From: a bacterium
GTDB taxonomy: Bacteria > UBP18 > UBA7526
NCBI GenBank assembly: GCA_030615855.1
Contig: JAUWYL010000015.1
Span: 1-31,322 of the forward strand
Direction of reading: 5' to 3'
DNA length: 31,322 nt
Positions 12,097 to 30,675 of this stretch are shown piece by piece. The position numbers and the translations under genes are program-made. The notes beneath the pieces were generated by a model, which ran no database searches, was not told where the DNA came from, and saw only the letters and a list, made by a program, of their open reading frames with translations. Numbering within the stretch: the first letter of the stretch is position 1; each line of letters starts with the position of its first letter.

Positions 12097-12099
12097 CTT

Positions 12100-13789: not shown

Positions 13790-13794
13790 TCTTC

Positions 13795-14028: not shown

Positions 14029-14050
14029 TTCGCTCACTCCGTTCGCTCAA

Positions 14051-14151
14051 TACGCTGATTACCGCTGATATACTGCACTGATTGCCGCTGATTATCTGCG
14101 GTCATCTGCGTCTTTTTTCCATATCTCTCCTCGCCATCTGCGTCTATCTGC
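14051..14151. repeat. Tandem GCTGAT(T/A) x4 followed by ATCTGCG x4 around a T-rich centre
   Basis: Read directly, between PduT stop and the small EP-protein start. Confidence 0.7.
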
Positions 14152-14153
14152 GT

Positions 14154-14705: not shown

Positions 14706-14728
14706 TTCATCCTCGTTTCACTCGGATA

Positions 14729-14816
14729 GTTTACAGTTTATCCGCTCGGCCTTTGGCCTCGCTGTTTACTGTTAACCGTCTTTTACCGTAAACCGTACAC
14801 CGTTAACCGTAAACCC
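14729..14816. repeat. ACCGT-family array containing dispersed block TTTACCGTAAACCGTACACCGTTAACCGTAAACC
   Basis: Upstream of PduT start; 23-27 nt identical to copies at ~25787-25815 and ~26901-26925. Confidence 0.8.
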
Positions 14817-14840
14817 TATCTTGCTGGTTACTGCTCACTG

Positions 14841-16163
14841 TTATGCTTCGATAGTAATAGAGTCTCCGATATCGGTTATCTTTCCCTCTATTGAGGCATG
14901 AATCCTTGCTCCTAAGGCTCCTCTGGGAATATCGGCAATCAAATCTCCCACTTTTACTTTCTCATTCAACTTTACGGTCGGGATCGATTTTGCTCCCACA
15001 TGCTGAGAGAGAGAAATCCTGACAAGGTTCGTCCGATATTCTCTCTTCTCCAGAGGAGCATCAAGATTATATTCCTCTATTCCGATCCTTGAGATGATCC
15101 TCTCTGTAGGAACTTTGCGATACTCTATCATGGAATGGGCTTCCTCCGGAGCCTCCTTATGGGGATTCTTAACCTTGGCCTCTGTCAGTTCCTTTTTAAT
15201 CTCCTGATTCACCCTGAGTGGTGATAGTCCAAAAGGACAAGCATATAGATTACATAAACCGCATTCTGAACAGAGGAAAGCAGCGGTGATGTCATTCAAT
15301 TCCTTTCTCATTTCATACCCCACATGCCTCATTATCTTATGGGGTTTTAAGGAATGGCCGATTAAGTACCGGGGACAGAGTTCAGTGCAGTCGGTGCACT
15401 GCATACAGAGCATGGTCTTCCTGAGGATTTTTCTCATCTCCAGGGTCTTGTTCATAATGACCTGATGGTCTTTGGGCAGGACAATCAATCCCGTGGTGGT
15501 CTTCATTACTGGGGAATCCAAATCTTCAATCAGTTTCCCCATCATAGGTCCGCCATCCAAGACAGAAAAATCATTTATCTTTGGTTCAGCTAATCTTATT
15601 ACCTCTCCCACACTCATCCCCACGGGAACCTTCACTGACTTCGGTCCCTTCACCGCCCCGGATATTGTGAGATAGCGATGGGTGACCGGCCTTCTTTCTA
15701 TAGTATCTGCAACATTGATGAGGGTTCCCACATTATCCACCACCACTCCCACTTGTAGGGGAATTCCTCCCTCAGGGACGATCCTCTTCAATACCTCATA
15801 GACCAGTATCTGCTCATCACCCGCAGGATAGAAGTCACCAAGGATAAATAGTTCGATGTGGGATGGAGGATGTGGGATGTGGGATGTTAAAGCAGCGATG
15901 GCCTCTTTATATTTTTCTTTTAAAGCAATAAATCCCTTCTTGGCTCCCGTGGCCTCCATTACTAGCTTTAAACCCTTGATCACTTTGTTCGCTTGGGTAG
16001 CCATTAATTGCTGATCGATGCGCAAGAGAGGCTCACACTCCGCACCATTGGCGATGACATACTCTACCTTGGTCTCTAACTTCACATGGGTGGGGAAGCC
16101 CGCTCCCCCTGCTCCCACCACCCCAGCATCCCTTACTTTCTCAATAATCTCTTTCTTATTCAT
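14841..16163 (-). CDS. pduS: PduS/RnfC-like Fe-S flavoprotein (BMC-associated oxidoreductase)
   Basis: 440 aa; N-terminus 'VRDAGVVGAGGAGFPTHVKLE' as in PduS/RnfC; two ferredoxin motifs 'CMQCTDCTELCP' and 'CSECGLCNLYACP'; in-frame heptamer repeat (~15855-15886) encoding 'HIPHPPSHI'; my manual base count and the ORF track disagree by 1 nt at this start codon. Confidence 0.8.
   Translation of the reverse strand: MNKKEIIEKVRDAGVVGAGGAGFPTHVKLETKVEYVIANGAECEPLLRIDQQLMATQANKVIKGLKLVMEATGAKKGFIALKEKYKEAIAALTSHIPHPPSHIELFILGDFYPAGDEQILVYEVLKRIVPEGGIPLQVGVVVDNVGTLINVADTIERRPVTHRYLTISGAVKGPKSVKVPVGMSVGEVIRLAEPKINDFSVLDGGPMMGKLIEDLDSPVMKTTTGLIVLPKDHQVIMNKTLEMRKILRKTMLCMQCTDCTELCPRYLIGHSLKPHKIMRHVGYEMRKELNDITAAFLCSECGLCNLYACPFGLSPLRVNQEIKKELTEAKVKNPHKEAPEEAHSMIEYRKVPTERIISRIGIEEYNLDAPLEKREYRTNLVRISLSQHVGAKSIPTVKLNEKVKVGDLIADIPRGALGARIHASIEGKITDIGDSITIEA
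15855..15886. repeat. In-CDS tandem heptamer (GATGTGG)x4.5
   Basis: Encodes 'HIPHPPSHI' inside the PduS-like protein, in frame. Confidence 0.8.
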
Positions 16164-16224
16164 TCCGTCATTCCGTCATTCCGTCATTCCGTCAGTAAGT
16201 TAGACGGATAGACGGATTAGACGT
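16162..16224. repeat. (CATTCCGT)x4 tandem octamer followed by (GACGGATA)x2.5 near-reverse-complement units; includes the PduS start codon
   Basis: Read directly; on the mRNA strand gives ACGGAATG x4 immediately 5' of and including the ATG. Confidence 0.8.
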
Positions 16225-16249
16225 TTCCTTCAAAACTTAAAGTTTTTTA

Positions 16250-17680
16250 TTAGGCAATTCTAAAGTAATCCACCAATACGCATCTTAAGGGTCTAGTGAA
16301 GGTGCTGGCTTTGGTCAATCCTTCTCCAGTGGGGGTGGCGATGCTCATGGTGGCATATCCCTCTCCCTCGTACCCCAACCCGGCATAGGAAGGGGCATTC
16401 TTAACGAAGATGGAAACTTGAGCGGTCTTGGCCATCTTGGTCAGATTGGCAACATTTAAGGAATGCATGATGGCGGTATGCTTATTGGCCTGTTCAACTT
16501 CTACAGCAAAATTAATTGCCTCATCAACATCTTTTACCCTGACAAAAGGGATGACCGGCATGAGCTGCTCTGTCCAGACGAAAGCGTGGTTTCGGTCCAC
16601 TTCACAGAATAAGAGTCTGGTACTCTCTGGTACTTTTACTCCAATCTTGGAAGCGATTAAAGTGGCATCCCTACCAATATACTCCCTACTCACTTTGGGC
16701 TCTTTCCCTGGACCACCTGGTTCCAGTATGGCGGCCTTGGTTAACTTTTCAAACTCATCCTTCTTTAACTCATAGGTCCGGGGATCCTTGCGCAATAGTT
16801 CCAATAATCTATCAGCAATAGCTTCCACGGCGATGATCTCCTTCTCTGCGGTACACAAGACGCCATTGTCAAAACTGGCTCCCTTTATGATGGAGTCAGA
16901 GGCATGCTCTAAGTCTAAAGTCTCATCTATTACTACTGGAGGATTCCCTGGACCAGCAGCAATCACCTTCTTTCCGCAGGCCATGGCGGCTCTCACCACC
17001 CCTGGCCCACCAGTGACTAGGATGAGCTTTATCTTGGGATGCTTGAATAGTGTCTGGGCCTCTTCAATGGAGGGCTTGGCAGCAGTGGTCATCAGATTTG
17101 CTGGCCCACCTGCTTTTATAATCGCTTCATTAAGAATCTGAATGGATTTCAGGGATACCTTCTTGGCTGCCGGATGGGGGGCGAAGACCACACTATTCCC
17201 GGCAGCGATGATGGAGATGGCATTATTTATTATGGTAGAGGAAGGATTGGTAGAGGGAGTCACAGCACCTATTACTCCAAAGGGAGCCATCTCCACTAAG
17301 GTTAAACCATGGTCCCCAGTATAGGCTATGGGGTGTAGATCCTCTACTCCAGGGGTCTTCTGGGCAGATAATAAGTTCTTCTGGACCTTATCCTCCCACC
17401 TTCCCATCTTGGTCTCTTCCCAGGCCAATTTTGCTAAACTCTCTGCCTCCCGGATTGAGGCCTCCCTCATAGCCTCGATATATTTGCTCCTCTTCTCCAG
17501 ACTCTCGCGAAAGAGCTCCCTTTGGGCAATCCGTGCCGCCTCAATGGCTTCCTCCACATTAGGAAAGACCCCCAGGTCCCCAGCACCTGCCTTTACTTCA
17601 GGAGGTCTGGCCTCTTCTTTGGTCATCCTCTCTACTATTTCCTTAACAACTTCTCTTATCTTCTCTGGACTGATCTCCAT
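16250..17680 (-). CDS. CoA-acylating aldehyde dehydrogenase (EutE/PduP family) with N-terminal encapsulation peptide
   Basis: Catalytic Cys box 'FDNGVLCTAEKEII'; start taken at ATG (17678-17680; SD GAGG 6 nt upstream) giving 'MEISPEKIREVVKEIVERM'; ORF-track start 17707 is GTG inside the upstream repeat array. Confidence 0.85.
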   Translation of the reverse strand: MEISPEKIREVVKEIVERMTKEEARPPEVKAGAGDLGVFPNVEEAIEAARIAQRELFRESLEKRSKYIEAMREASIREAESLAKLAWEETKMGRWEDKVQKNLLSAQKTPGVEDLHPIAYTGDHGLTLVEMAPFGVIGAVTPSTNPSSTIINNAISIIAAGNSVVFAPHPAAKKVSLKSIQILNEAIIKAGGPANLMTTAAKPSIEEAQTLFKHPKIKLILVTGGPGVVRAAMACGKKVIAAGPGNPPVVIDETLDLEHASDSIIKGASFDNGVLCTAEKEIIAVEAIADRLLELLRKDPRTYELKKDEFEKLTKAAILEPGGPGKEPKVSREYIGRDATLIASKIGVKVPESTRLLFCEVDRNHAFVWTEQLMPVIPFVRVKDVDEAINFAVEVEQANKHTAIMHSLNVANLTKMAKTAQVSIFVKNAPSYAGLGYEGEGYATMSIATPTGEGLTKASTFTRPLRCVLVDYFRIA

Positions 17681-17703
17681 CTTCATCCTCACTTCGCTCC
17701 GGT

Positions 17704-17789
17704 GCACGGATAATCACGGATTTCATACGGATGAGCACAGATTAAATCCGTGCTAATCTGTATTATTATCAGTGCTAATCCGTGTCTAA
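17704..17789. repeat. Phased CAC(G/A)GAT x4 then ATC(C/T)GTG x4 array (same family as 21443-21523)
   Basis: Unit starts approximately 17704/17714/17725/17735 and 17747/17757/17770/17780 (~10 bp phasing); spans BMV3 stop to AldDH start. Confidence 0.8.
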
Positions 17790-18076
17790 GACTTTCTGAA
17801 TAAAACCTTACCTTCTACCTCAATGGTATCCACAATGGCCATGATCACCGCATCTGTGGGGGTATCCTTAGTCCTTACTGTCTGACGGGCAGAGGAGCCC
17901 TTGGCGATCAGGACCACCTCTCCGATTCCAGCTCCCACAGCATCGATGGCTACCAGAGGAGATCCCTCCTCTTTTCCTTCCATGCTTATGGGCTGAATCG
18001 CCAATAACTTACAACCCTCTATCTTCTCATCCTTCCTGGTAGCCACAACGGTACCAATCACCTTGGCAAATATCAT
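17786..18076 (-). CDS. BMC vertex (pentamer) protein, EutN/CcmL family (paralog 3)
   Basis: 96 aa; 'MIFAKVIGTVVATRK...LLAIQP'; strong SD AAGGAGGAG. Confidence 0.85.
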   Translation of the reverse strand: MIFAKVIGTVVATRKDEKIEGCKLLAIQPISMEGKEEGSPLVAIDAVGAGIGEVVLIAKGSSARQTVRTKDTPTDAVIMAIVDTIEVEGKVLFRKS

Positions 18077-18100
18077 CTGTCTCCTCCTTATAGATTAGAA

Positions 18101-18166
18101 GTTTACAGTAGCCAGTTAACAGTAACCAGTCTTCTACTGTAAACTGTTCGCTGGTTACTGGTTACT
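18101..18166. repeat. GGTTACTG-family element: GTTTACAGT...CAGTAACCAG then ACTGTAAAC...CTGGTTACTG (unit / reverse-complement unit, order preserved)
   Basis: Exact 9- and 10-nt reverse-complement pairs at ~30 nt offset; between AckA stop and BMV3 start. Confidence 0.75.
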
Positions 18167-19370
18167 TCTTTGTTTTGCTGATGACATCGTAGGTATCTCG
18201 AGCAATGACCAGTTCCTCGTTGGTTGGTATGCAATAGACTTTGACCTTTGAATTGGGAGCGCTTATCTCCCCCTCCTTCTTTATTGTCTTCTCGTTCCTC
18301 TCCTTATCGATAACCACCCCTAAAAATTCCAACCCAGCACAACTCAAGGCTCTTATTCTGGGAGCATTTTCGCCAATCCCGGCAGTGAAGACGATAGCAT
18401 CCACTCCTCCCATGACTCCGGCATAGGAAGTGATATACTTCCTAATGTGATAGGTGAAGATCTCTATGGCTAATCTTGCCCGGTCATTCCCCTTCTTCTC
18501 CTCTTCCAGGATATCATACATATCACTGCTCACTCCTGATAATCCCTGAAGACCAGAGTGGAAGTTAAGCATGGTATTTACCTCATTTATGGATAATCCT
18601 TCATTAGTCATGATATATAGAACGATGGCGGGATCGATGTCCCCACATCTGGTCCCCATGACTAAACCCTCTAGGGGGGTGAAGCCCATTGAGGTATCGA
18701 TGGATACCCCTCCCTTAATGGCAGCAATACTGACTCCATTCCCCAAGTGGCAGGTGATGACCTTTAAATCTGTCAAGGGCCTATCCATGAGATGGGCCAC
18801 TCTCTGGGAGACATAGAGGTGAGAAGTTCCATGGAAGCCGTATCTCCTTATCCCATATTTACGATACTGAGTGTAAGGCAATCCATAGATATAGGCATGG
18901 CGAGGCATGGTCTGATGGAAGGCAGTATCGAAGACCGCTACCTGGGGGATCCCGGGAAGGAGTTCCTCACAGGCCATGATTCCCCTCAGGTTATGAGGGT
19001 TATGTAGAGGAGCAAGTTCTATGCAATCCGCTATACCTTCTTTTACCTCCTCAGTAACCAGGACTGAAGTAGCAAATTTCTCTCCCCCATGGACTACTCG
19101 GTGACCGACAGCAACAATCTCTTTCTTATCCTTAATGACTCCCGTTTTAGGATGGAGAAGAGCATCTAGGGCTAACTTTATCGCCTCTCTATGATCCAAG
19201 ATCTCTGCTGCCGTCTTTACCGGCTTCTTCTTCCCAACCTGATAGGTTGAGAGCGCTCCACTCATTCCGATTCTCTCCACAATCCCCTTGGCTAAAACAG
19301 ACTCCTTTTCAATCTCAATCAGTTCATACTTCACAGAAGAACTTCCACAATTTAGTACTAATATTTTCAC
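18162..19370 (-). CDS. ackA: Acetate kinase
   Basis: 402 aa; 'KILVLNCGSSSVKYEL' N-terminus and ASKHA-fold motifs; GTG start with SD GGGGGT. Confidence 0.9.
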   Translation of the reverse strand: MKILVLNCGSSSVKYELIEIEKESVLAKGIVERIGMSGALSTYQVGKKKPVKTAAEILDHREAIKLALDALLHPKTGVIKDKKEIVAVGHRVVHGGEKFATSVLVTEEVKEGIADCIELAPLHNPHNLRGIMACEELLPGIPQVAVFDTAFHQTMPRHAYIYGLPYTQYRKYGIRRYGFHGTSHLYVSQRVAHLMDRPLTDLKVITCHLGNGVSIAAIKGGVSIDTSMGFTPLEGLVMGTRCGDIDPAIVLYIMTNEGLSINEVNTMLNFHSGLQGLSGVSSDMYDILEEEKKGNDRARLAIEIFTYHIRKYITSYAGVMGGVDAIVFTAGIGENAPRIRALSCAGLEFLGVVIDKERNEKTIKKEGEISAPNSKVKVYCIPTNEELVIARDTYDVISKTKK

Positions 19371-19403
19371 TTTTACCCCCTTTAAGGTTGGTATTAGTTA
19401 GCA

Positions 19404-19465
19404 GTGTACAGTTTACAGCAAAAAACTGGTTACTGTTCGCTGGTTACTGATTACTCTTTATCTTA
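19404..19465. repeat. GGTTACTG-family element (shares CTGTTCGCTGGTTACTG(G/A)TTAC with 18136-18166)
   Basis: Between PduL stop and AckA start. Confidence 0.75.
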
Positions 19466-19470
19466 ACTTT

Positions 19471-20136
19471 TTATGATATTTCTACTAGGTCTCCTTGAGA
19501 TAGGCCAGCGGCATTGGCCTCATCAATATCTATATGGAAATCTAACCTATGGGTTGGTCCCGACCTTATCATGACGTTATCGAATATTAATGCTCTCTTT
19601 CCCGGTACCTTTACCTTTACTGTATCCCCGTCCTTCACCCCAAAGCCCCTTGCTTCATCTGGAGACAAGTGGATATGGCGCTGGGCAATAATCGCCCCCG
19701 CTCTTAAGTTAATCTCTCCCTTGGGGCCGATAATCTTTATCCCGCTCGAGCCCTTTATATCTCCCGAAATCCTCACTGGAGGTTTGATTCCCAAGATGTA
19801 GCTATCTGTTCTTGAGACCTCGACCTGGGTCTCTTTTCTTACTGGGGCCAGGATGCGCACCTTTTCCATCCTTCCCTTTGGTCCTACTAAGGCGACTACT
19901 TCATTTGCTGCAAACTGCCCTGGCTGAGAGAGGTCTCTCAGTTTTGTCAGTTTCGCTCCCTTTCCGAATAGGGTTTCTAAATCCTTTGTAGTAAGATGTA
20001 CATGTCTATTAGAGAGACCGACTGGGATCTTTCCAGGAGGTGCTTTGGGCGCGGCACTCAGCTTGCTTAAGACCTCCTCCACTATGGAACGAACTAACTT
20101 CTCATCGTACACTTTCTTGTCCTCGATAGATGTCAA
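19471..20136 (-). CDS. pduL: Phosphate acyltransferase PduL (PTAC) with N-terminal encapsulation-peptide-like helix
   Basis: Duplicated RHxH motifs ('SNRHVHLT', 'AQRHIHLS'), 'SQPGQFAA', 'HIDIDEANAAGL'; ORF-track start is TTG; a GTG at ~20109-20111 with SD GAGGA would give 'M-YDEKLVRSIVEEVLSKL' (EP helix), so the true start is uncertain. Confidence 0.8.
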   Translation of the reverse strand: MTSIEDKKVYDEKLVRSIVEEVLSKLSAAPKAPPGKIPVGLSNRHVHLTTKDLETLFGKGAKLTKLRDLSQPGQFAANEVVALVGPKGRMEKVRILAPVRKETQVEVSRTDSYILGIKPPVRISGDIKGSSGIKIIGPKGEINLRAGAIIAQRHIHLSPDEARGFGVKDGDTVKVKVPGKRALIFDNVMIRSGPTHRLDFHIDIDEANAAGLSQGDLVEIS

Positions 20137-20153
20137 TAAAATACAGTATAATA

Positions 20154-20213
20154 GGTGGATTGGTTGGATTAGTTGGATTTAAAATCCACCTAATTTCCTA
20201 ATCCAACTAATTT
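20154..20213. repeat. GGATTAGTTGG-family element: GGTGGAT...AGTTGGATT then ATCCACC...AATCCAACT (order-preserved reverse-complement pairs)
   Basis: Between TPI stop and PduL start; related copy at ~30706-30740. Confidence 0.75.
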
Positions 20214-20222
20214 ACTCGGCGG

Positions 20223-20978
20223 CTATTTTTTATACTTAATGATCTGGGCAAAGGATTTAGCATCGAGGCTCGCTCCCCCCACTAAGGCGCCATCGATGTC
20301 CTCCTCCCTCATTAAATCAGAGATATTCTCTGGCTTGACGCTTCCTCCATATTGGATTCTAACCTTAGCGGCAGTAACCTCATCATAGAGTTCGTTTAAA
20401 AGTCCTCTAATGAAGGAGTGAACCTCTTGTGCCTGATCTGGGGTGGCGGTCTTTCCGGTTCCAATGGCCCATACCGGCTCATAGGCAATGACTATCTTCA
20501 GTATCTCTTCCCGGGATAGGCCTTCCAGTCCCCGGGTGATATGTTCTCTCACCACCCCTTCGGTCACTCCCCTCTCCCTCTCCTCTAACCTTTCTCCCAC
20601 ACACATTATAGGTGTAAGGCTAAACTTTAGAGCCGTCTTTACCTTCCTATTCACTGATTGATTCGTTTCAGCGAAGAACTGCCTCCTCTCCGAGTGACCA
20701 ATGATGACGTATCTGCAGCCCACACCAGTGAGCATCCCTGGTGAAACCTCTCCCGTATAGGCCCCCTTCTCCTCCCAGTAGACATCCTGAGCACTGAGAA
20801 AAATGTTCGTCCCTCGAATGGCCTTGCCCACCGCAAAGAGAGAAGTAAAAGGAGGACAGACTACAATGTCAAGATCGTTGACCTTGGCGACCTCGGACTT
20901 TAATTTAGTCACTAAGTCCAGGGACTGGTCGATGGTCTTATTCATCTTCCAGTTCCCGGCAATTATCGGCCGGCGCAT
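20223..20978 (-). CDS. tpiA: Triosephosphate isomerase
   Basis: Start taken at ATG 20976-20978 (SD AGAGGAGGAG) giving 'MRRPIIAGNWKMNKT'; 'AYEPVWAIGTGKTAT', 'GGASL'; the ORF-track N-terminal extension runs into the repeat array. Confidence 0.9.
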   Translation of the reverse strand: MRRPIIAGNWKMNKTIDQSLDLVTKLKSEVAKVNDLDIVVCPPFTSLFAVGKAIRGTNIFLSAQDVYWEEKGAYTGEVSPGMLTGVGCRYVIIGHSERRQFFAETNQSVNRKVKTALKFSLTPIMCVGERLEERERGVTEGVVREHITRGLEGLSREEILKIVIAYEPVWAIGTGKTATPDQAQEVHSFIRGLLNELYDEVTAAKVRIQYGGSVKPENISDLMREEDIDGALVGGASLDAKSFAQIIKYKK

Positions 20979-20994
20979 AAACTCCTCCTCTAAA

Positions 20995-21131
20995 CACAGA
21001 TTCACACAGATAAGAGACAGATTCACACAGATCACAGATATTTAATAGCATCCGAATTCCAAAAAATTCTAATATCGAATTTTATAATCTGTGATCTGTG
21101 GCCATCTGTAAACAATCTGTGATGATCTGTG
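20995..21131. repeat. Large symmetric array: CACAGAT x5 (~10 bp phased), then 46-bp A/T-rich centre with GAATT repeats, then ATCTGTG x5
   Basis: rc(CACAGAT)=ATCTGTG exactly; spacer lengths are nearly mirrored (3,4,3,0 vs 0,3,4,2); between BMC-H stop and TPI start. Confidence 0.85.
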
Positions 21132-21422
21132 CTATTTACCAGGAGTGATGGGCATTACCCCTTCCAGATCCGGATGAGGTCGGGGAATGACGTGGACGCT
21201 TATCAGTTCTCCTACTTTCTGGGCAGCACTGGCTCCCGCATCGCAGGCTGCCTTGCAGGCGGCAACGTCACCCCTCACCAAGGTAGTGACATAGCCGGCT
21301 CCGATCTTCTCCCAGCCCACGAGATTCACCTTGGCGGCCTTGATCATGGCATCTGTAGCCTCGATAAGGGTTACCAGTCCCTTGGTCTCAATCATCCCCA
21401 GCGCTTCTCTTGCTTCTACCAT
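21132..21422 (-). CDS. BMC-H hexameric shell protein (PduA/EutM type, PF00936)
   Basis: Start taken at ATG 21420-21422 (SD AGAGGAGGTG) giving '[30 protein letters not shown]...'; the ORF-track extension to 21476 runs into the upstream repeat array. Confidence 0.85.
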
Positions 21423-21442
21423 TTTCTTCACCTCCTCTAATA

Positions 21443-21523
21443 CACGGATAATCACAGATTCTTTACGGATGGTCACGGATCAAATCCGTGCTAATCCGTG
21501 TTGTTATCCGTGCTAATCCGTGT
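21443..21523. repeat. Phased (C/T)AC(G/A)GAT x4 then ATCCGTG x4 array upstream of the BMC-H gene
   Basis: Unit starts approximately 21443/21453/21463/21473 and 21484/21494/21506/21516; between DGC stop and BMC-H start. Confidence 0.85.
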
Positions 21524-23317
21524 CTATTTACTTTTAAAGAGGCAGACCTTATTTCTTCCTTCTCTTTTAGCGCGATATAAAGATTGGTCTGCCTGGCCGA
21601 TTAGTACCTCCTTACGCATACCCTTCTTATAACCGGCCACCCCAATACTCATCGTAATCTTGACTCTCTTCTTCTTTCCTTTTAGAAAATCAAAGCCCTG
21701 GACCTTCTTCCGCAGGCGTTCTGCCAAGAGACAGGCTCCCTTAGCATCCGTCTCGGGTAGGATAAGGGCGAATTCCTCTCCTCCGTAGCGGGCAGCGATA
21801 TCCGCTCCCCTTATAGCTTGCTTTAAGAGACGGGCGATATTCACTAAAACCGTATCCCCCGCTGGATGGCCATAGGTATCGTTAAATCTTTTGAAGTGAT
21901 CAATATCTAACATAAGCAAGGATAATGGAGTCTCATAACGTTTGGCCTTCCCCATCTCCTGCTCCAGGTAATTCTGAAAGAAGGTATGGGCATAGAGACC
22001 GGTCAATCCATCGTGAATCGCCTGCTCATATAGCATAGCATTCTGGATGGCTATCGCAGCATGGCTTGCCAGGGTAGATAGGAGCTCCTCGTCCCGGCGA
22101 ATGAACGGCTGGCGGGAGACCTTATTGGAGAGGGTAATCACTCCCACCCCCTCTCCCTTAGCCACCAGGGGAAGAGCGAGTAAAGTCTCTGTCCTATGTA
22201 ATTTCTTCTCTGTCTTTAGAGTCTTATAGCGTCGATCCCTTAAGGTATCATTGATTACCATGAGTTTCTTCTTCTCAAAGACGCTACCGGCAATCCCTTC
22301 CCCTATCTTTAGCCTCAGGTGTTTCCTGGCCTCCTCACTTATCCCTGTACCATAAGCGATATAGAGCCTCTTTTTCTTCTCGTGCCAGAGCATGAGGGAT
22401 CCCTTCTCCACCTGAGCCACCTCCATGAATAATCCTACGATGAGCCTCAAAAGTTCTTCCCTCTCCAGGTTGGAACTTATCTTTGTCGAGAGTCTTTGAA
22501 GCATCTGAAGATCCAGGACCCTCTGGTCAAGCTCCTCCTTTGCTCTGGCTAAGAGAGTGCTCTTCTCCTCAAGCGATCTCCAGCTCTGAGAGAGCCTCTT
22601 CCCCATCTGGTTAAATACCTCTCCCAATTCCCCCACCTCATCTCGAGAGGTGATCCTCACCCTGGCTCCCAGATCTCCCTTACCAATTTTCTTGGCAGCT
22701 TGAACTAACCTCTTTATCGGTCGGGTAATGCTGGCTGCCAGGAATAAGGAGATGACGATCCCTAGGATGAGCAGGCCAATGGTCAGAAGAAAGATGCGAT
22801 CTCGAATCTCAGCGATCCTTGCTTTTAAGAGGAGAGAGGAGAATCCCACCCTTACCAGGCCGATCCTTCTTTTTCCAAGAAGAATAGGAACTGCGACATC
22901 GTATACTCCCTCTTCTGTAATCTGTGAGAGGGTGGTCCTTGCTCCCTGGGCCTTGAGGCTCAAGTCATCACTCAAGGTCTTGCCCACCAGGCTCTTATTC
23001 GTGTGGGCCATGACCTCTCCAATATCATTCAAAATGATGACATAATCGATATCCTCACCCTTCTTGCCTATTCCCTCCACTATCTGGGCCAAGGTGATGT
23101 AATCATTGGATAGGATGGCCGTGGTGGAGGTGGTGGCCAGAGCATTGGTAATGTCCTTGGCCCTCTTGATCATCTGGTCAGTGGCCGTTCCCTCCTCCCT
23201 TTTGAGAGTGATACCAGCCACTAAGGACATGATGATCACGATGATCATAATCACAAATCCAGCAATCTTTCCTGCTAAACTAACTTTCATCTGTTTAGAA
23301 GTATCCCGGGCTGACAA
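21524..23317 (-). CDS. Membrane sensor diguanylate cyclase (TM - extracytoplasmic sensor - TM - HAMP - GAF - GGDEF)
   Basis: 597 aa; two hydrophobic segments flanking a ~150 aa sensor region, HAMP-like region, GAF-like region, GGDEF with 'RYGGEEFALIL'; TTG start with SD GGGAGG (alternative ATG at 23288-23290). Confidence 0.8.
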   Translation of the reverse strand: MSARDTSKQMKVSLAGKIAGFVIMIIVIIMSLVAGITLKREEGTATDQMIKRAKDITNALATTSTTAILSNDYITLAQIVEGIGKKGEDIDYVIILNDIGEVMAHTNKSLVGKTLSDDLSLKAQGARTTLSQITEEGVYDVAVPILLGKRRIGLVRVGFSSLLLKARIAEIRDRIFLLTIGLLILGIVISLFLAASITRPIKRLVQAAKKIGKGDLGARVRITSRDEVGELGEVFNQMGKRLSQSWRSLEEKSTLLARAKEELDQRVLDLQMLQRLSTKISSNLEREELLRLIVGLFMEVAQVEKGSLMLWHEKKKRLYIAYGTGISEEARKHLRLKIGEGIAGSVFEKKKLMVINDTLRDRRYKTLKTEKKLHRTETLLALPLVAKGEGVGVITLSNKVSRQPFIRRDEELLSTLASHAAIAIQNAMLYEQAIHDGLTGLYAHTFFQNYLEQEMGKAKRYETPLSLLMLDIDHFKRFNDTYGHPAGDTVLVNIARLLKQAIRGADIAARYGGEEFALILPETDAKGACLLAERLRKKVQGFDFLKGKKKRVKITMSIGVAGYKKGMRKEVLIGQADQSLYRAKREGRNKVCLFKSK

Positions 23318-24536
23318 AGCCCGCCTCCCTTCCCTCTGGAGTAATTCTCAAAGAGCCAAACTGAATAATCCTTATTCTTCCTCCATCTTTAACTGGAGTG
23401 GATAAGAGGACTTCCTTCTTCCTGTAGTCGATCTCATCTATCCTTCCCATTCCTAAGGTATCGCCTTTTTCATCCAAGAGGCCCACCAGTATTCCCTTCT
23501 CGTCTCCAGCAACGATGCTTCTGATATTTCCCAATTCTTTACCCAGCTCATTCAATCTCTCTTGAGGAAGAGGCTTTTGGGTAACAACCAATGTTCCTTC
23601 AAAGCCAGATAGTCTCTCGGCATAAAGAGTCCCGGGAATTTTCATCTCTCTTCCTGTCCTGAAGTAACACCTATCAGTTGCTATTCTCTCCAGGGGAAGT
23701 CTAATCTTCCTGGCCCCTTTAAAATACCTTGTGCTGGGCAGTTCCCTCAACTTCTTCCTCTCCCCCTCACTAGTAAAAGAGGCCTTCTTCGAAACATGAA
23801 TCCGAACGATCTTTTTGGGAGCATAACCCTTAATCAGATGTTCCAACTCGTTCGTCCTCTGTAAAAGAACAATGATCTCTGGAGAGAGGATTTCGATTTT
23901 CGCCCTCTTGAGCGCCCGCCCTCCATCGCTCTGTACCCAGCCTGTGGTATTGATAATGACCGTATTCGCTTTTTTCAAACCAGCCTCTACCAATCGCTTG
24001 ATTCCCACAATAGTGGGTAAAAAGTGCAGGCCTGGGGAATGGGAGCCCACGAAGTAGATGGCAGAAATGCGGGCTTCTTTCAAAAAGACCACCTGTTTCT
24101 TTAAAACCGCCAACCCCAAAGTGCCTGGGATACCGATGTCGCTCTGGCCCGGATCACCATCCAGGACCGCCGGCCTCACTCCCTTCTCCAGGAGCTTATT
24201 CGCTAAATAGGTGGCGAAGAAGGTCTTTCCCGTATCCACCTCCCCCAGAACGAGAATTGTTCTGGCTTTTTCTTTTACAATGCGGGAGATAAGATCATCC
24301 CAGGAGGAAGGGATAGTTCTCTCTTTAATTTTCCTTATCTCGCCAGGCCTCTTTACTTCTATAGAAAGAGTGGATTTTTCTTCGGCCTCTAAAGGAATGG
24401 TCTTGCCCGGAGGAATAAAGACCTCTTCATTTTCTTCGACACTCTTTCCCACCGCCTCTATCTTTCCCCTCTTTACTCTTACCTTTCCCGGCCCTTTCAG
24501 GATATAGATATCACCTTTCTTTACCTTATATTCCAT
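23295..24536 (-). CDS. Clp1/Grc3-family polynucleotide 5'-hydroxyl kinase-like P-loop protein
   Basis: 413 aa; N-terminal beta-rich domain, Walker A 'GEVDTGKT', family-typical 'DGDPGQS' (DxDxGQ) motif, C-terminal domain; strong SD GGGAGG; 3' end overlaps DGC start. Confidence 0.65.
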   Translation of the reverse strand: MEYKVKKGDIYILKGPGKVRVKRGKIEAVGKSVEENEEVFIPPGKTIPLEAEEKSTLSIEVKRPGEIRKIKERTIPSSWDDLISRIVKEKARTILVLGEVDTGKTFFATYLANKLLEKGVRPAVLDGDPGQSDIGIPGTLGLAVLKKQVVFLKEARISAIYFVGSHSPGLHFLPTIVGIKRLVEAGLKKANTVIINTTGWVQSDGGRALKRAKIEILSPEIIVLLQRTNELEHLIKGYAPKKIVRIHVSKKASFTSEGERKKLRELPSTRYFKGARKIRLPLERIATDRCYFRTGREMKIPGTLYAERLSGFEGTLVVTQKPLPQERLNELGKELGNIRSIVAGDEKGILVGLLDEKGDTLGMGRIDEIDYRKKEVLLSTPVKDGGRIRIIQFGSLRITPEGREAGFVSPGYF

Positions 24537-24554
24537 CCTTTACCTCCCTTTCTT

Positions 24555-24620
24555 TATTCGTGTCAATTCGTGTTCTACTTCTTTCGTCTACCCTTTATAG
24601 TTCGCGTTGATTCGTGTTCT
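24555..24620. repeat. ATTCGTGT(TC) tandem/dispersed units spanning the 3' end of the small Lys-rich gene and the intergenic spacer
   Basis: Five units read directly; partly coding (encodes '...EHESTRT...'). Confidence 0.7.
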
Positions 24621-25021
24621 TTAAATACTAAGGTAGGCCAGATCTTTTCTAAGACACCCTTCTCCAGCACCAGAATCTTCTTTATGTCCTCTTTCTTTAT
24701 CTCCACGCTCTGGGGACGTCTCACTACCTCTGGCTTCTCCAAGACAATTCTCTTCCCTTTTTTAGACTTCACGGTTCCTACTACTTCACAGCCCGGGGTC
24801 CTAATGAGTACTTTCTCCCCCCTCTTTAGTTCCCCTATCTTTTTCTCTTTCACCATACTGGGCAGGCACATAGAGATTATTCCGGGATAGAGAGGGACCT
24901 GCTTATGGGTCTCCCAGATCTCTTTCAATACCTCAACCACCAGGGCTGGGTTCTTATACTTCTGGATGAGATTTATCATCTCTTTCTTTAGATTGGGATA
25001 ATCCGATTCCTGAAAGGTCAT
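24575..25021 (-). CDS. Hypothetical Lys-rich small protein (translationally coupled to upstream P-loop kinase)
   Basis: 148 aa; SD GAGGAGGGAG; ATG overlaps upstream stop (ATGA); C-terminal codons lie within an ATTCGTGT repeat array; no recognisable domain. Confidence 0.5.
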   Translation of the reverse strand: MTFQESDYPNLKKEMINLIQKYKNPALVVEVLKEIWETHKQVPLYPGIISMCLPSMVKEKKIGELKRGEKVLIRTPGCEVVGTVKSKKGKRIVLEKPEVVRRPQSVEIKKEDIKKILVLEKGVLEKIWPTLVFKEHESTRTIKGRRKK

Positions 25022-25677
25022 TTCTCCCTCCTCAACGCGGATTTCTTTTTGCTGCTTACTGCTTGGGTAATCTTTTCTACTATTCCCTTATAGTGGGCCA
25101 TCCCGTTATAATCGGTATTGACCACTACTATTGGTATCTTTGATTCTTTTCCAAATCTTAGCAGATCATCTCTATCATCGTGAAGATAGGTCTCTTCCAT
25201 CTCCTCACGTGGTACCAGATGGTTATCCACTCCCGCAGCTAAGGTCGCCTCATGCCTTCTCACATTCCTCCTCCAGCAGGTCTCAAAGGAACAATCAATA
25301 TAGACAATCAAGGATTTATCTATGATTCCCTTATCAAAGTTTTTCAGGGAATGGACATAGTTTGAACGGGAGAACTCAATGAAGATCATCCTTCCCTTCT
25401 TATCCAGTTTCTTCACATCCCTATTCACCTCTTTTAGGATGTCATCCCAGACCTTGGGATCGGTAACTTTATATCCCCCATCCTCTGTCGGTTTACATCT
25501 CTTAAAATTTTTGTCGTTTACGAAAATATTCCAGAGTTTTGGGAAGTCATCCACCCTGACAAATTCCTGGGCAAAGCCTTCCTTCTTTAATCTTGGGGTA
25601 AGCCTCCTATGTAACTCGCTCTTTCCACATCCCGGCCTGCCCAACATAAATATATTCCTGCATTCTTTCTTAGCCAT
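25018..25677 (-). CDS. P-loop kinase, polynucleotide-kinase (T4 Pnk kinase domain)/AAA_33-like
   Basis: Walker A 'MLGRPGCGKSE' 10 aa from N-terminus, downstream 'RVDD' and Arg-rich lid 'WRRNVRR'; start taken at ATG 25675-25677 (SD GAGGG); the ORF-track first codon is TTG. Confidence 0.6.
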   Translation of the reverse strand: MAKKECRNIFMLGRPGCGKSELHRRLTPRLKKEGFAQEFVRVDDFPKLWNIFVNDKNFKRCKPTEDGGYKVTDPKVWDDILKEVNRDVKKLDKKGRMIFIEFSRSNYVHSLKNFDKGIIDKSLIVYIDCSFETCWRRNVRRHEATLAAGVDNHLVPREEMEETYLHDDRDDLLRFGKESKIPIVVVNTDYNGMAHYKGIVEKITQAVSSKKKSALRREK

Positions 25678-25821: not shown

Positions 25822-26799
25822 TCATTTAAAAATACTATTTAGATAATCTGTCTCATCCTGCAAAAGCTTTCTAGCATTAATGATTTCTTGCGGATCCCTC
25901 ACTGCAGTCTCAACGACGATCAGTTCCACCCCTTTTTCCTTTATAATTTCAGCAAACCTCTCTAAGTTCTTCTTCTTCAGGGGGCCCCTCTGGTAATGGA
26001 GGGGGGGATGGAACTTCTTGATCTTGGGGATATAGTCATTGAGATGGATCTCCTTCAAGAGTTCCGCTGGGATCTTTTCCAGGATGCTTTCTGGGGGGTC
26101 TGGTATCTCCTTGGGTGGTGTTCCATCCGCCCTAGTAAACCAGTGGCCGATGTCAAAGCAGTAATAAATCTCCAACCCCTTCTTCTTCACCTCCTCAATT
26201 ACCGGATAGATCTCTTCTGACTCCACGAAGACGATGTCAAATACGGTGTTATTCTCAATGTGAAAGGAGATCCCCATCTCCTTAGAAGCCTGGCTCAATT
26301 CTATAAGGCTCTTGATGAGGCTCTTCTTCAAATCCTCTTGATACTGGGGGCCGGCCTGATAGAAAGGAACAGTGCCTGGATGCATGATGGCATTGATCGC
26401 TCCCACTCCTTCAGCAAACTTCAAGTATCTCTTCTGCAGGGTAACCGCTAATTCCCGGTCCACCTCCTGGAAGGCACAGGTGCTCGTAGCAACATAGGTA
26501 TAGGGGAGATGTAAAGAAATGGTAATTCCCGATTCCTGGGCCGTTTGCCTTACTCTTTCGATCTCTTCCTCACTCATCTCCAAGAAGGGGTTGGGCACCC
26601 CGCCATCCAGTTCTATATGATCCAGGCCGATCTCCTTAGCTACCTCTATCTGTTTAGGGATATCTCTCTTGGACTTTATCTGGGTCAGGGCGTCCAAGTC
26701 CGGAACATCTATCTCACCCCTCTTAAATCTCTCTCTATCCTCTTGGCTTACATAATCTAACTCTAAGAGATTAGTAAAGTTCCTTCCGATTCTAATCAT
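25822..26799 (-). CDS. Xylose isomerase-like TIM-barrel protein (sugar-phosphate isomerase/epimerase or Endo IV-like family)
   Basis: Metal-ligand pattern 'SLHLP', 'MHPG', 'HIEN', 'FDIGHW', 'HLND'; start taken at ATG 26797-26799 (SD GGAG); the ORF-track start is GTG. Confidence 0.65.
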   Translation of the reverse strand: MIRIGRNFTNLLELDYVSQEDRERFKRGEIDVPDLDALTQIKSKRDIPKQIEVAKEIGLDHIELDGGVPNPFLEMSEEEIERVRQTAQESGITISLHLPYTYVATSTCAFQEVDRELAVTLQKRYLKFAEGVGAINAIMHPGTVPFYQAGPQYQEDLKKSLIKSLIELSQASKEMGISFHIENNTVFDIVFVESEEIYPVIEEVKKKGLEIYYCFDIGHWFTRADGTPPKEIPDPPESILEKIPAELLKEIHLNDYIPKIKKFHPPLHYQRGPLKKKNLERFAEIIKEKGVELIVVETAVRDPQEIINARKLLQDETDYLNSIFK

Positions 26800-26818
26800 T
26801 TTTCTCACTCCGTTCGAG

Positions 26819-26925
26819 GGTTTACTGTTGACCGTTTACGGTAAAAAAAACCGCCTCTCGTTTTCACTCGAGACTGGGCGATCCTGAATGAAATGAAGGA
26901 CCGTACACCGTTAACCGTAAACCTT
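26819..26925. repeat. ACCGT-family element: GTTTACTGTTGACCGTTTACGGT...(A)8...GACCGTACACCGTTAACCGTAAACC
   Basis: 23-nt identity with ~14794-14816; upstream of the TIM-barrel gene. Confidence 0.75.
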
Positions 26926-27788
26926 TATTTCTTCAAATATTTTCCAATAAGAAGTTCTAGTTCCTTCTTCCTCTTCTCTGGTATGGCCTCTTTCTGAGTA
27001 ATAACGGCAGTGGCTAAGGCAGTGGCACAGGAACATTCCCTCTTATCTGGTATCCTGGGAATGATCGCTCTAACAAGTTCCTTTGCTTTTAAGGCATTTG
27101 CCTCTAAGTTTTTTATCACGGTCGCAACGCTCACTTCTTCTGTCACATGCCACACATCATAATCCGTAACCAGAGCCACTGTGGCATAGCAGATCTCTGC
27201 CTCTCGGGCAAGCTTCACCTCCGGAAGGTTGGTCATCCCAATGACCTCCACCCCCCAACTGCGATATATTCTGGACTCTGCTCGGGTAGAGAAGGCTGGC
27301 CCTTCGATGCAGAGATAGGTTCCGCCCTTATGTATCCGGTATCCCAAATCCTTGCCCGTTTCATATAGTATCTTGCTCAAGATTGGGCAGTAGGGGTCAG
27401 CGAAGGAGATATGAGCCACTATCCCATCCCCAAAGAAGGTAGGGACCCTAATCTTCGTCCTATCGAATAACTGATCGGGGATGAAGAAGTCCTGGGGCCT
27501 GATCTCTTCCTTCATGCTTCCCACAGCAGAAAAGGCAATGATCCACTCCACCCCCAGAGATTTCAGGGCATAGATATTGGCCTTATTGGGGAGTTCTGTG
27601 GGCATAATCCTATGACCCCGGGCATGACGAGGTAGAAAGGCCACCCTCTTCCCTTCCAAAGTACCAGTGATTATGCTATCTGAGGGCTCCCCGAAGGGAG
27701 TAGAGGGCTTCACCTCCTTCATATCCTCTAAGCCCTTGATATCATATAATCCCGTTCCCCCAATCACCCCGATCTTAATCTTCTCCAT
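26925..27788 (-). CDS. mtnP: S-methyl-5'-thioadenosine phosphorylase (PNP/MTAP family)
   Basis: 287 aa; 'IGVIGGTGLYD', 'FGEPSD', 'GMTNLPEVKLAREAEICYATVALVTDYD'. Confidence 0.8.
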   Translation of the reverse strand: MEKIKIGVIGGTGLYDIKGLEDMKEVKPSTPFGEPSDSIITGTLEGKRVAFLPRHARGHRIMPTELPNKANIYALKSLGVEWIIAFSAVGSMKEEIRPQDFFIPDQLFDRTKIRVPTFFGDGIVAHISFADPYCPILSKILYETGKDLGYRIHKGGTYLCIEGPAFSTRAESRIYRSWGVEVIGMTNLPEVKLAREAEICYATVALVTDYDVWHVTEEVSVATVIKNLEANALKAKELVRAIIPRIPDKRECSCATALATAVITQKEAIPEKRKKELELLIGKYLKK

Positions 27789-29271: not shown

Positions 29272-30675
29272 TTAACTCTTGAGATAATCCAGGCCCAGGT
29301 CTATGGCGATCTCCCTCTCCCTCTTCTTAAGTCCATTCTTGTCTGCCCGCAAGGAGAGATCCTTTAACTGTTCATAGAATCTGAAGAAGGCCAGTATGGC
29401 AGTGGGGGTGGGAACGGGTGCCGTCCGGGTATTGCATTCTGCCGCCCGGCTATGGCCTCCTCCAGTAATCAAGTCTGGAAAGCCATACTTCCTCACCAGC
29501 CTACTGGCCAGAGTATGGCAGATTTTACCACAGTGTATCCTATCCGAGGTGGCACGAAGGGAGAAGTGGGTTCCTCCATCAGGCTCCTTATTGATCATGA
29601 CTAAAAGGACATGCTTCTCACTCGATTCCTTAGTGAGATCATGGAGCTTCACCGAGCCCACCATGGGCAGTAAGGGAACATTCTCTCCAATGAAGAGCTG
29701 GATGGCCACCCGACCCATCTTCCCTATGGAGATGGTGGAATCTAAGAGGTGGCTAGCGCTCTCCCAATCCCTTAAATAATATTTGTATAGTTGCTGGATG
29801 ACCCAGCGATAGGGAATTTCTCCTGAGAAGTGATCGAGCCTCTTTAGATTCGACATCTTAGGGTTTCTTCTTCCATACTTGGATAAAGAGGTAAAGACCA
29901 GATCTACCTGGTCCACCCCCTTTAAAGACTTCGCTCTATCGTTATAGAAGTACTGGAAGCCTCCACCGCATGTTCCATGGATGAGTTCTGTGATCCGGGA
30001 AAGAAGAGAGGTCTTCTCCCTCTGGGTAATATCGAACATGGTGGGTCTGGACTTCAGAGGGGTGAGCAGGTTCTTGAAGTTCTTCTCATATGTCTCATAG
30101 AAGGATTGGGCGAATTTACTCACCTCTCCTGTTGCCGGATCGATGGCAAAGTCTCCCTTCAGGCCGATGAAGCATAGAAAATCATCATAATCCTCTTTTA
30201 AACCCAAGGTAGTAGCGATCATGTGGGTGAGAAGTGAGGTGGAACACATGATATACTCTTCTGCTTGAGGATTGCTATTAGGGTTATAGAGGAGGCACTT
30301 CTTGGGAGGTCCTTCGGGGAGATCGGGGAAGTGATGATCGATGACTACGATATCCTTTATGATCATGGTGTGTTCGTCATAGTAGCTGGTAGTCCCCTTA
30401 TCCAGAATGAAGAGAAGCTCGTATTTCTTCTTTACTGTAGAGGCTAATTGTTCCTTAGTTAGTATATAAGAAGGGGGAAAGAAATAATCAACCTCTGCCC
30501 CCAATTTATCCAAGAGACGCTTTAAAATAAGGGCGGAAACGATCCCATCCGGATCGTCGTGGCTTACTATGAGACACCTCTGTTCCTTTGTGACCTTTAT
30601 ACGCTCGACAATTTTTTCTAATCCTTCAGAGGATTTAATCTCTTTCTCTATCCACTCGGTATAGTCCTGGGCCAT
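29272..30675 (-). CDS. DHH/DHHA1 family phosphoesterase (NrnA/RecJ-like)
   Basis: 467 aa; 'SHDDPDGIVSA', 'VVIDHHFP' (DHH), C-terminal DHHA1 'GGGHSRAA'. Confidence 0.7.
   Translation of the reverse strand: MAQDYTEWIEKEIKSSEGLEKIVERIKVTKEQRCLIVSHDDPDGIVSALILKRLLDKLGAEVDYFFPPSYILTKEQLASTVKKKYELLFILDKGTTSYYDEHTMIIKDIVVIDHHFPDLPEGPPKKCLLYNPNSNPQAEEYIMCSTSLLTHMIATTLGLKEDYDDFLCFIGLKGDFAIDPATGEVSKFAQSFYETYEKNFKNLLTPLKSRPTMFDITQREKTSLLSRITELIHGTCGGGFQYFYNDRAKSLKGVDQVDLVFTSLSKYGRRNPKMSNLKRLDHFSGEIPYRWVIQQLYKYYLRDWESASHLLDSTISIGKMGRVAIQLFIGENVPLLPMVGSVKLHDLTKESSEKHVLLVMINKEPDGGTHFSLRATSDRIHCGKICHTLASRLVRKYGFPDLITGGGHSRAAECNTRTAPVPTPTAILAFFRFYEQLKDLSLRADKNGLKKREREIAIDLGLDYLKS

Follow-up and report, generated by a model that had tools for sequence, protein, structure and literature searches.

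A conserved gene module of a RecJ-like DHH phosphoesterase, a small protein and a Clp1-family kinase in uncultivated bacteria, with a putative role in nucleic-acid salvage

Much is known about Clp1-family kinases in eukaryotes, where they take part in the processing of tRNA, mRNA and rRNA; to our knowledge, their bacterial members have been regarded as rare curiosities and no role has been known for them in prokaryotes. What such an enzyme may be doing in a bacterial operon is the question raised by a stretch of 31,322 nucleotides (contig JAUWYL010000015.1 of assembly GCA_030615855.1, from a bacterium of the lineage UBP18; UBA7526), the whole of which is called here the window. All the genes of this 31-kb window lie on the minus strand. 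An original prediction, made from the DNA alone, had singled out three of them, namely a T4-Pnk-like P-loop kinase of 220 amino acids (aa), a Lys-rich small protein coupled to it and a Clp1-family kinase of 413 aa, and had read them as reminiscent of an RNA end-healing or repair module. The three minus-strand open reading frames (ORFs), which we call K220, S and Clp1, were found where they had been placed, and the homologues present in databases (419 for Clp1, 46 for S and 240 for K220) indicate that they are real genes and not chance ORFs. The prediction was equally accurate about the ATGA overlap between the K220 and S genes (25018-25021), the 38-nt repeat-containing spacer before Clp1 (24537-24574), the motifs GRPGCGKSE, RVDD, WRRNVRR, GEVDTGKT and DGDPGQS, and the nearby genes for a TIM-barrel protein (25822-26808) and a DHH phosphoesterase (29272-30675). 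It is the composition of the unit that has to be revised: what is conserved is not a pair of kinases with a small protein, but a RecJ-like DHH nuclease, S and Clp1.

Clp1 and its constant neighbours

The 413-aa protein encoded at 23295..24536 (minus strand) matches the Clp1_P family PF16575 over profile positions 1-188 of 188 (E=6.3e-35, 121.1 bits against a 26.6-bit cut-off), which upholds the family assignment made at the outset. It consists of an N-terminal beta-rich domain, the central Clp1_P kinase and a C-terminal domain, and displays a Walker A motif (GEVDTGKT, residues 98-105), a Walker B motif (DGDPGQS, 126-132), a clasp (TTGW, 197-200) and a lid (R260-K-K-L-R264-E), all of them invariant in 14 homologues of 47-100% identity and aligned with those of human and Caenorhabditis elegans Clp1. 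The best solved relatives are human CLP1 (8hmy, 1.5e-10), C. elegans Clp1 (4ohv, 1.9e-10) and NOL9 (~6e-8), while residues 1-384 and 12-404 align with proteins from two archaeal metagenome-assembled genomes (MAGs), one of them of Helarchaeota. Judged by its sequence, the protein is a full-length Clp1 of the archaeal type: it shares the central domain, with Walker A and B, TxGW clasp and lid arginines, with the human, C. elegans, Pyrococcus (Ph-Clp1) and Thermus scotoductus (Ts-Clp1) enzymes and is full length, with N- and C-terminal domains, whereas Ts-Clp1 represents a short bacterial form (PMC6777427) to which the window protein does not belong. On the basis of these motifs and of the 5'-OH polynucleotide kinase activity demonstrated for Ts-Clp1 and Ph-Clp1 (PMC6777427), it is predicted to phosphorylate 5'-OH RNA or DNA with ATP. 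The rarity of Clp1 in bacteria, as originally claimed, holds for cultured species (14/1,543; PMC6777427) but not for uncultivated phyla, in which the database search disclosed hundreds of members of the full-length subfamily. The window enzyme also differs from known Clp1s in its company, since its operon partners are a RecJ-like DHH nuclease and a small protein of an uncharacterised family, and not TSEN, Pcf11 or Las1, and its subfamily is found in uncultivated bacterial phyla, beside genes of nucleoside catabolism.

To describe this company we used a neighbourhood set obtained by a scan with one genome per species, which yielded 79 loci (79 species-representative genomes); the counts given for S, DHH and the TIM-barrel-K220 pair refer to the 85 loci analysed. 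ORFs were called in the loci, searched with the window proteins and then clustered, and Pfam annotation of the context covered nine loci. Over the 79 species-level genomes, the conserved unit was the RecJ-like DHH nuclease plus S plus Clp1. A homologue of S was present in 72 of the 85 loci and lay directly upstream of Clp1 in every locus in which both were found, at a distance of 0-6 nt or with a 1-nt overlap where gene calls exist; the DHH gene was present in 59, usually directly upstream of S. S is thus a partner of Clp1 and not of K220, to which it had been described as coupled by the ATGA overlap, and of the gene neighbourhood expected to be conserved in other genomes it was DHH-S-Clp1 that was kept, the K220/TIM-barrel pair occurring in only 13-14 loci. 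The loci came from MAGs labelled Riflebacteria/Ozemobacteraceae, Elusimicrobia/Endomicrobia, Caldiserica, Hydrogenedentota, Mcinerneyibacteriota and Spirochaetes, plus one labelled Hadarchaeum, and in Riflebacteria the triad behaves as a conserved single-copy core gene set. In the last of these (L059 6789-11248), whose label, Candidatus Hadarchaeum, is that of an archaeon, S and Clp1 come after two DHH genes in tandem; the module could have originated in archaea or been transferred horizontally, or its presence could be due to contamination during binning.

The genes around Clp1 fell into four differently arranged neighbourhoods, all of which concern nucleotides or nucleic acids. In type-A loci (Riflebacteria, Ozemobacteraceae and others), DHH is directly upstream of S and is itself preceded by ComEC, ComEA and a split-off metallo-beta-lactamase (MBL) gene, with NrdD and NrdG downstream. 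The Elusimicrobia- and Caldiserica-labelled loci carry pyrimidine-nucleoside phosphorylase (PYNP), purine nucleoside phosphorylase (PNP), PfkB, adenosine deaminase and dGTPase genes, and in several of them the adenosine deaminase gene is placed between K220 and S. The clade of the window presents an MTAP-type phosphorylase, the TIM barrel, K220 and a bacterial microcompartment of the sugar-phosphate-utilisation (SPU) type. Finally, in a sister clade devoid of S and DHH, Clp1 is flanked by transketolase, phosphate-transporter and PhoU-like genes, together with two PNP, HAD-hydrolase and PLD-like genes. Neither RtcB, Rnl, Hen1 nor any other RNA ligase domain appeared in the nine Pfam-annotated contexts, and no ligase formed a recurrent gene cluster among the 85 loci, a result that covers gene neighbourhoods only.

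Two of these arrangements deserve a comment of their own. In about 30 Riflebacteria-type loci besides L003 and L090 (e.g. L003 1497-9254), ComEC is devoid of its usual C-terminal metallo-beta-lactamase domain, and a separate MBL gene of 315-320 aa follows ComEA and stands immediately before DHH-S-Clp1; in front of ComEC is the gene of a conserved protein of 260 aa that matches nothing in Pfam. PLD-like genes follow Clp1 also in L026, L039 and L049; two separate clades have a gene for a PLDc_2 protein shortly after Clp1 (L089 11517-12092; L049 11592-12623). Cleavage by certain PLD-family nucleases produces 3'-phosphate and 5'-OH ends; if these neighbours cut in this way, they would create a substrate for a 5'-kinase.

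The DHH partner in the window (29272..30675, minus strand) is a DHH/DHHA1 phosphoesterase of 467 aa, recognised by PF01368 (E=5e-11, 43.4 bits, cut-off 28.1). Its best database matches are RecJ_archaeal of NCBIfam (2.4e-15), bacterial recJ (1.1e-13), 7bhi (8.5e-7), Pyrococcus furiosus RecJ (5x4h, 1e-5) and GAN (5ghr); a literature search for a paper on 7BHI returned none. The motifs DDPDG, LDKG, IDHH and GGGH are at least 95% conserved in 50 orthologues, so that DHH motifs I-IV and the DHHA1 GGGH of archaeal RecJ/GAN/Cdc45-type and bacterial RecJ proteins are all kept, and the size, about 470 aa, is similar to that of archaeal RecJ/GAN. In contrast, the scores lie far under every equivalog cut-off (56.3 bits against 360 for RecJ_archaeal and 50.3 against 396.9 for recJ), the N-terminal DHH domain alone aligns, and there are no GINS or MCM partners. 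As far as sequence can tell, the protein is therefore RecJ-like and not a RecJ orthologue, and we infer that it acts as the exonuclease partner of S-Clp1.

S itself (24575..25021, minus strand; 148 aa), whose ATG overlaps the K220 stop, belongs to an uncharacterised family. It is laid out as a helical N-terminal part and a small beta-barrel core, with conserved M-[ST]-F-[KQ]-E-[ST]-[DE]-[FY]-P (N-terminal), VPLYPGI and WPxLVF (C-terminal) motifs. Searches of Pfam and PADLOC gave no match, and no meaningful relative emerged when its profile was compared with PDB sequences, the sole match below 0.01 being a designed helical-repeat fusion protein; a match to uL24 was weak (0.06). In 1.84 billion proteins the family amounts to 80 cluster representatives, all standalone and of 156 aa or less. 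An AF2 model built from a shallow alignment of 23 sequences was poor (pLDDT 55.6), with the barrel (residues 57-101, pLDDT 70-80) as its best-defined part, and Foldseek with this low-confidence model returned Sm/LSm-like matches only, at E>0.07. A KOW, uL24 or Sm fold is therefore no more than faintly hinted at, below significance, whereas gene order suggests that S may be a Clp1-associated subunit.

The Lys-rich character ascribed to S in the original prediction is true of the window protein (17.6% Lys, pI 9.86), but as a trait of the family it had to be rejected in view of a median pI of 5.1 and of 46 acidic proteins among 70 members; a basic S is a property of the window's clade only. The clade also varies in the length of S, which in close relatives is either 136-137 aa, with no tail, or 148 aa, with a Lys/Arg-rich C-terminal tail. 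The 38-nt spacer between S and Clp1 (24537-24574), which contains ACACGAAT twice, and the 3' end of S are both covered by a diverged tandem duplication with 44-nt spacing (24544..24620, minus strand). Its arms, 24544-24576 and 24588-24620, are 73% identical over 33 nt, one corresponding to the spacer and the other to the tail. Because a 68%-identical relative (L002) has a 137-aa S with no tail, which abuts the Clp1 start, we believe that tail and spacer are probably the product of a recent local duplication.

K220, the TIM-barrel protein and the rest of the window

K220 (25018..25677, minus strand), the genetic partner of the TIM-barrel gene, is a P-loop kinase of 219 aa of an unnamed family. 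Three starts can be considered for its ORF, namely a TTG at 25680 (25018-25680), an ATG at 25677, which gives 219 aa, and an ATG at 25647, which gives the 209 aa of the NCBI gene call. The 219-aa start is the more plausible, because the 209-aa one deletes the first beta strand, preceding the P-loop; relatives of 210-213 aa likewise favour the earlier start. Its likeness to T4 Pnk and AAA_33, claimed at first, did not withstand the profile searches: K220 scored 20.8 bits with AAA_33 (PF13671; cut-off 27, E=5e-4) and 25.4 bits with AAA_18 (cut-off 29.4), and its profile matched deoxynucleoside kinase and UMP-CMP kinase among PDB sequences; in structure, too, it came no closer to polynucleotide kinases than to other P-loop kinases. 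Besides the GRPGCGKSE P-loop, the motifs on which the claim was built, RVDD and WRRNVRR, contain the family-invariant R-V-D43-D44-F and R137-N-V-R-R141. By eye, the Asp after the P-loop and the R-N-x-x-R helix resemble those of T4 Pnk; such Asp and RxxxR motifs occur also in PSTK, gluconate kinase and dNK-type kinases. On sequence grounds K220 is best regarded as a generic P-loop kinase whose T4-Pnk likeness is non-specific. With T4 Pnkp it may have in common the P-loop, the downstream Asp-Asp and the R-N-x-x-R helix, and with T4 Pnkp and Pnkp-Hen1 it shares the position of a P-loop kinase gene beside that of a metallo-phosphoesterase, which here would be the TIM barrel.

The TIM-barrel metalloenzyme (25822..26808, minus strand; 328 aa) falls into the AP_endonuc_2 superfamily (PF01261, E=2.8e-24, 86.6 bits, cut-off 31.1), which is also the fold family of endonuclease IV (Endo IV) and MJ1311. 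It stayed far below the cut-off for nfo itself (TIGR00587, 6e-6, 25.7 bits against 129.65) and under that of the NCBIfam CbiR phosphodiesterase (1.4e-9). The closest PDB match of its profile was MJ1311 (3wqo, 1e-14), deposited as an "uncharacterized protein" and for which the literature offered one passing mention and no functional study, followed by Thermotoga Endo IV (2x7v, 1e-4); the HPG, EN, D..H and HLND motifs align with those of these matches. The invariant residues are H100 (HLPY), H143 (HPG), E185 (HxEN), D219/H222 (DIGH), H255/D258 (HLND), H267 (FHPP) and E300 (ETA), and probably include the positions of the Endo IV metal ligands (HxPY, HPG, xEN, DxxH, HLND, ETA). Since these ligand motifs match the Endo IV/MJ1311 pattern, the protein may be a phosphoesterase rather than a sugar isomerase, although this cannot be stated with certainty. 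D-tagatose 3-epimerase also matches it (7.5e-6), and a sugar isomerase or epimerase is the less likely reading because the extra invariant His residues of HLPY, HPG, HLND and FHPP fit Endo IV/MJ1311. A further difference from these two is that the gene is always paired with K220, within nucleoside operons.

The pair was found in 13-14 loci, all of which belong to what we call type B, that is, the window clade plus MAGs labelled Elusimicrobia, Endomicrobia, Caldiserica and Spirochaetes. In them, K220 always comes after a TIM-barrel gene, often overlapping it, and the pair is sometimes duplicated; its flanks are PNP/MTAP, pyrimidine-nucleoside phosphorylase, PfkB kinase, adenosine deaminase and dGTPase genes. 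Relatives of K220 outside Clp1 loci are again accompanied by nucleoside genes, and once by cytidine deaminase alone. In one distant genome (L087 3454-7633), the pair comes immediately after the gene for the NAD-dependent DNA ligase LigA; no other locus placed a ligase next to it, and this leaves open a role of the pair in DNA-nick repair. In the window, a non-coding gap of 141 nt (25681-25821) containing the hairpin CCCCGATAAATCGGGG separates the two genes; in Elusimicrobia-labelled loci they overlap, and in close relatives they are 50 to 257 nt apart. A regulatory RNA in this gap was considered and rejected, as the predicted folding of the gap does not exceed that of shuffled sequence (z=-0.58) and Rfam gave no match, and the hairpin sequence had no copy in the other loci.

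A metagenome contig (L086 448-10424) carries PYNP, PNP, PfkB, TIM-barrel, K220, adenosine deaminase and cytidine deaminase genes, with an unrelated P-loop protein of 407 aa where S-Clp1 would be and, upstream, a RecJ protein into which an RNase T exonuclease domain is inserted. The 407-aa protein could not be accepted as a divergent Clp1, since it had no Clp1 HMM match and only a sub-threshold AAA_33 one, and the contig may represent a non-orthologous replacement of the kinase.

In type-B loci, the gene that stands between DHH and the TIM barrel encodes an MTAP-type purine nucleoside phosphorylase (26925..27788 in the window, minus strand; 287 aa), identified by PF01048 (E=2.8e-43) and by the MTAP family TIGR01694 (322.5 bits, cut-off 274.85). 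In the window, it is separated from DHH by an HtrA-like serine protease with Trypsin_2 and PDZ domains (27790-29259, minus strand; 489 aa). The latter is absent at the matching position in L002 and L009, while L007 has a 118-aa remnant ORF, which gives it the look of a gene inserted in this lineage only. At the other end, the 3' end of Clp1 is overlapped by 23 nt by a gene for an sCache-HAMP-GAF-GGDEF diguanylate cyclase (21524-23317, minus strand), which is conserved at this position only in the window's own clade and separates Clp1 from the microcompartment locus.

This locus (11120..21476, minus strand), directly downstream of the cluster, contains genes for BMC-H, TPI, PduL, acetate kinase, aldehyde dehydrogenase, an RnfC-like flavoprotein, BMC-T, RpiB, EutN, an SH3 protein and deoxyribose-phosphate aldolase (DERA). 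It has the gene set of an SPU locus (PF00936 twice, PF03319, PF00171, PF06130 and PF02502); deoC is well supported (TIGR00126, 313.5 bits against a 117.3-bit cut-off) and RpiB was confirmed too. With other SPU loci it thus shares the BMC-H/-T/-P shell genes and those for DERA, RpiB, TPI, aldehyde dehydrogenase, PduL and acetate kinase. The difference is that here and in close relatives it is directly preceded by DHH, MTAP, TIM-barrel, K220, S and Clp1 genes (plus GGDEF), and the same juxtaposition was observed in L002, L007, L008 and L009. SPU microcompartments have been interpreted as consuming deoxyribose-5-phosphate from DNA degradation (PMC12747264, PMC9324843), and neither of these works mentions a link to such a cluster. 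The one in the window is likely to be a sink for deoxyribose-5-phosphate. Over the whole window, a search against Rfam matched no family, a scan for promoters and terminators gave counts not above those of shuffled sequence, and GC content and skew were uniform.

What the cluster may do

We start from what the DNA displays directly, that is, the identities of the genes, their catalytic motifs and order, and the nature of their neighbours. The neighbouring genes of nucleoside and nucleic-acid catabolism, together with the lack of a recurring ligase, argue for degradation or salvage over repair. We therefore favour, with a probability of about 0.45, the reading that the window cluster serves nucleic-acid and nucleoside salvage, Clp1 phosphorylating 5'-OH fragments for degradation by the DHH protein. 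Endonucleases leaving 5'-OH and 3'-phosphate ends would yield 5'-OH fragments, endogenous or taken up; Clp1, with S as a probable stabilising or bridging subunit, would phosphorylate their 5'-OH with ATP; and the DHH exonuclease would take the 5'-phosphorylated strand down to mononucleotides. The TIM barrel and K220, as a separate, translationally linked pair, would probably have 3' ends or phosphate esters at the nucleotide level as their substrates. Pentose-1-phosphate would then be freed by the MTAP-type phosphorylase, joined in relatives by deaminases, PfkB kinase and dGTPase, and in the window organism the deoxyribose branch could feed the adjacent DERA-containing microcompartment. A physical complex of S, Clp1 and DHH, the substrates, the polarity of the nuclease and the direction of the flux are all inferred in this scheme.

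There is a precedent for the proposed logic, in which a 5'-kinase makes the 5'-phosphate that an exonuclease needs. In yeast, Rat1 is licensed by Grc3 phosphorylation and Xrn1, on tRNA introns, by the Trl1 kinase (PMC2948184, PMC4102763). Like Grc3, the window Clp1 appears to have an obligate partner protein, although S is not similar to Las1 and is devoid of a HEPN nuclease motif. The nuclease is of the DHH/RecJ family and not Xrn/Rat1, and the genomic context is catabolic or salvage-related and not that of the ribosome biogenesis of Grc3/Nol9-Las1-Rat1. No paper linking Clp1 with DHH or RecJ proteins was found in the literature, and the main survey of prokaryotic Clp1 proteins neither mentions DHH proteins nor discusses operon context (PMC6777427).

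Several points weigh against the salvage reading. Its chief weakness is that archaeal RecJ-family enzymes include both 5'-3' and 3'-5' exonucleases (PMC5615345, PMC11193018), so that dependence on a 5'-phosphate is not assured. Riflebacteria supply much of the synteny count with loci that are not independent of each other, and the adjacency of ComEC and ComEA could be an inherited order without functional meaning. The subunit role of S is drawn from gene order, with no fold at useful confidence, and K220 and the TIM barrel have no assignable substrates. An ATP-spending 5'-kinase step is not obviously economical in catabolism. To these points must be added the distant locus with the pair beside LigA, which fits repair better than catabolism.

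A rather unlikely alternative, in our opinion, is that the triad matures or clears 5'-OH cellular RNAs (e.g. rRNA or tRNA precursors, toxin-cleaved RNAs or nanoRNAs) as a housekeeping counterpart of Grc3/Nol9-Rat1, the nucleoside genes being only loosely related. It has on its side that all characterised Clp1-family members act in RNA processing, that DHH nanoRNases are housekeeping enzymes, that the triad resembles a core set in Riflebacteria and that the weak Sm/KOW-like hints would suit an RNA-binding or decay-complex adaptor; moreover, Ts-Clp1 and Ph-Clp1 prefer single-stranded RNA (PMC6777427). Against these stand the neighbours: ribosomal, tRNA or RNase genes do not recur beside the module, whereas phosphorylases, deaminases, dGTPase, phosphate transporters, PLD-like and DNA-uptake genes do, and the DHH protein is closest to nucleases of the RecJ type and not to NrnA. 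The DNA-uptake genes, with ComEC, ComEA and the MBL gene directly upstream of the triad in Riflebacteria, would also suit the processing of DNA ends, in repair or on incoming DNA, by a split analogue of PNKP in which 3'-phosphates or AP sites would be cleared by the TIM barrel, 5'-phosphates put back by K220 and/or Clp1, the ends resected by the RecJ-like nuclease and the break sealed by a housekeeping ligase. The invariant, putatively Endo IV-like metal ligands, the type of nuclease and the LigA of L087 are consistent with this proposal, which we nevertheless consider improbable, since LigA adjoins the pair in one locus only, genes for other repair proteins do not recur, the TIM barrel is so distant from nfo, and the duplication of the pair within phosphorylase and deaminase operons suits base-specific small substrates better.

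The reading of the original prediction, an RNA heal-and-seal repair module with two polynucleotide kinases similar to Pnkp-Hen1 or RtcA-RtcB, fares worse and seems to us very improbable. A genuine Clp1 kinase is there, an Endo IV-like enzyme could in principle be a 3'-phosphatase, and K220 has its T4-Pnk-like features by eye. Nonetheless, K220 is no nearer to Pnk than to many small-molecule kinases, the contexts annotated with Pfam contain catabolic neighbours in place of RtcB or another RNA ligase, and the constant partner is a nuclease, which speaks of destruction rather than rejoining. What does stand of that prediction is that the combination is not a described system, as no description was found in the searchable literature. 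It is hardly credible that the genes belong to anti-phage defence or to some other mobile accessory system. The matches that could suggest it are weak and at the P-loop level only (NCBIfam DS8_antiphage, E=0.0039; PADLOC mad8, E=7e-4 for K220), and a dGTPase neighbour can be defence-related; PADLOC returned nothing for Clp1, S or DHH, the synteny with metabolic genes is stable across phyla, no integrases or defence islands are in the vicinity, and the composition of the window, as said above, is even.

Implications

The Clp1 enzyme family is known; what is new is its place, among catabolic genes, in an undescribed module of three genes that is widely conserved and includes a new small partner. 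If the salvage reading is true, the Clp1 subfamily of uncultivated phyla, with its two constant partners, would receive a concrete role, the licensing of 5'-OH fragments for exonucleolytic breakdown, the cluster would supply a missing upstream step of the proposed "DNA as food" route into SPU microcompartments, and S, K220 and the TIM barrel resembling Endo IV would each define a new family. Useful reagents might also result, such as coupled kinase-nuclease systems and polynucleotide kinases that are thermostable or selective for their substrate. A more daring and, for the time being, doubtful proposal is that several uncultivated anaerobic phyla possess a three-protein machine, made of an archaeal-type Clp1, a new and perhaps Sm- or KOW-like subunit and a DHH exonuclease, which would heal the 5'-OH end only to destroy the strand. 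It would be a prokaryotic counterpart of Grc3-Rat1 that makes food of DNA and RNA and, in the window organism, feeds a deoxyribose-phosphate microcompartment by way of the MTAP-type phosphorylase and the TIM-barrel/K220 pair.

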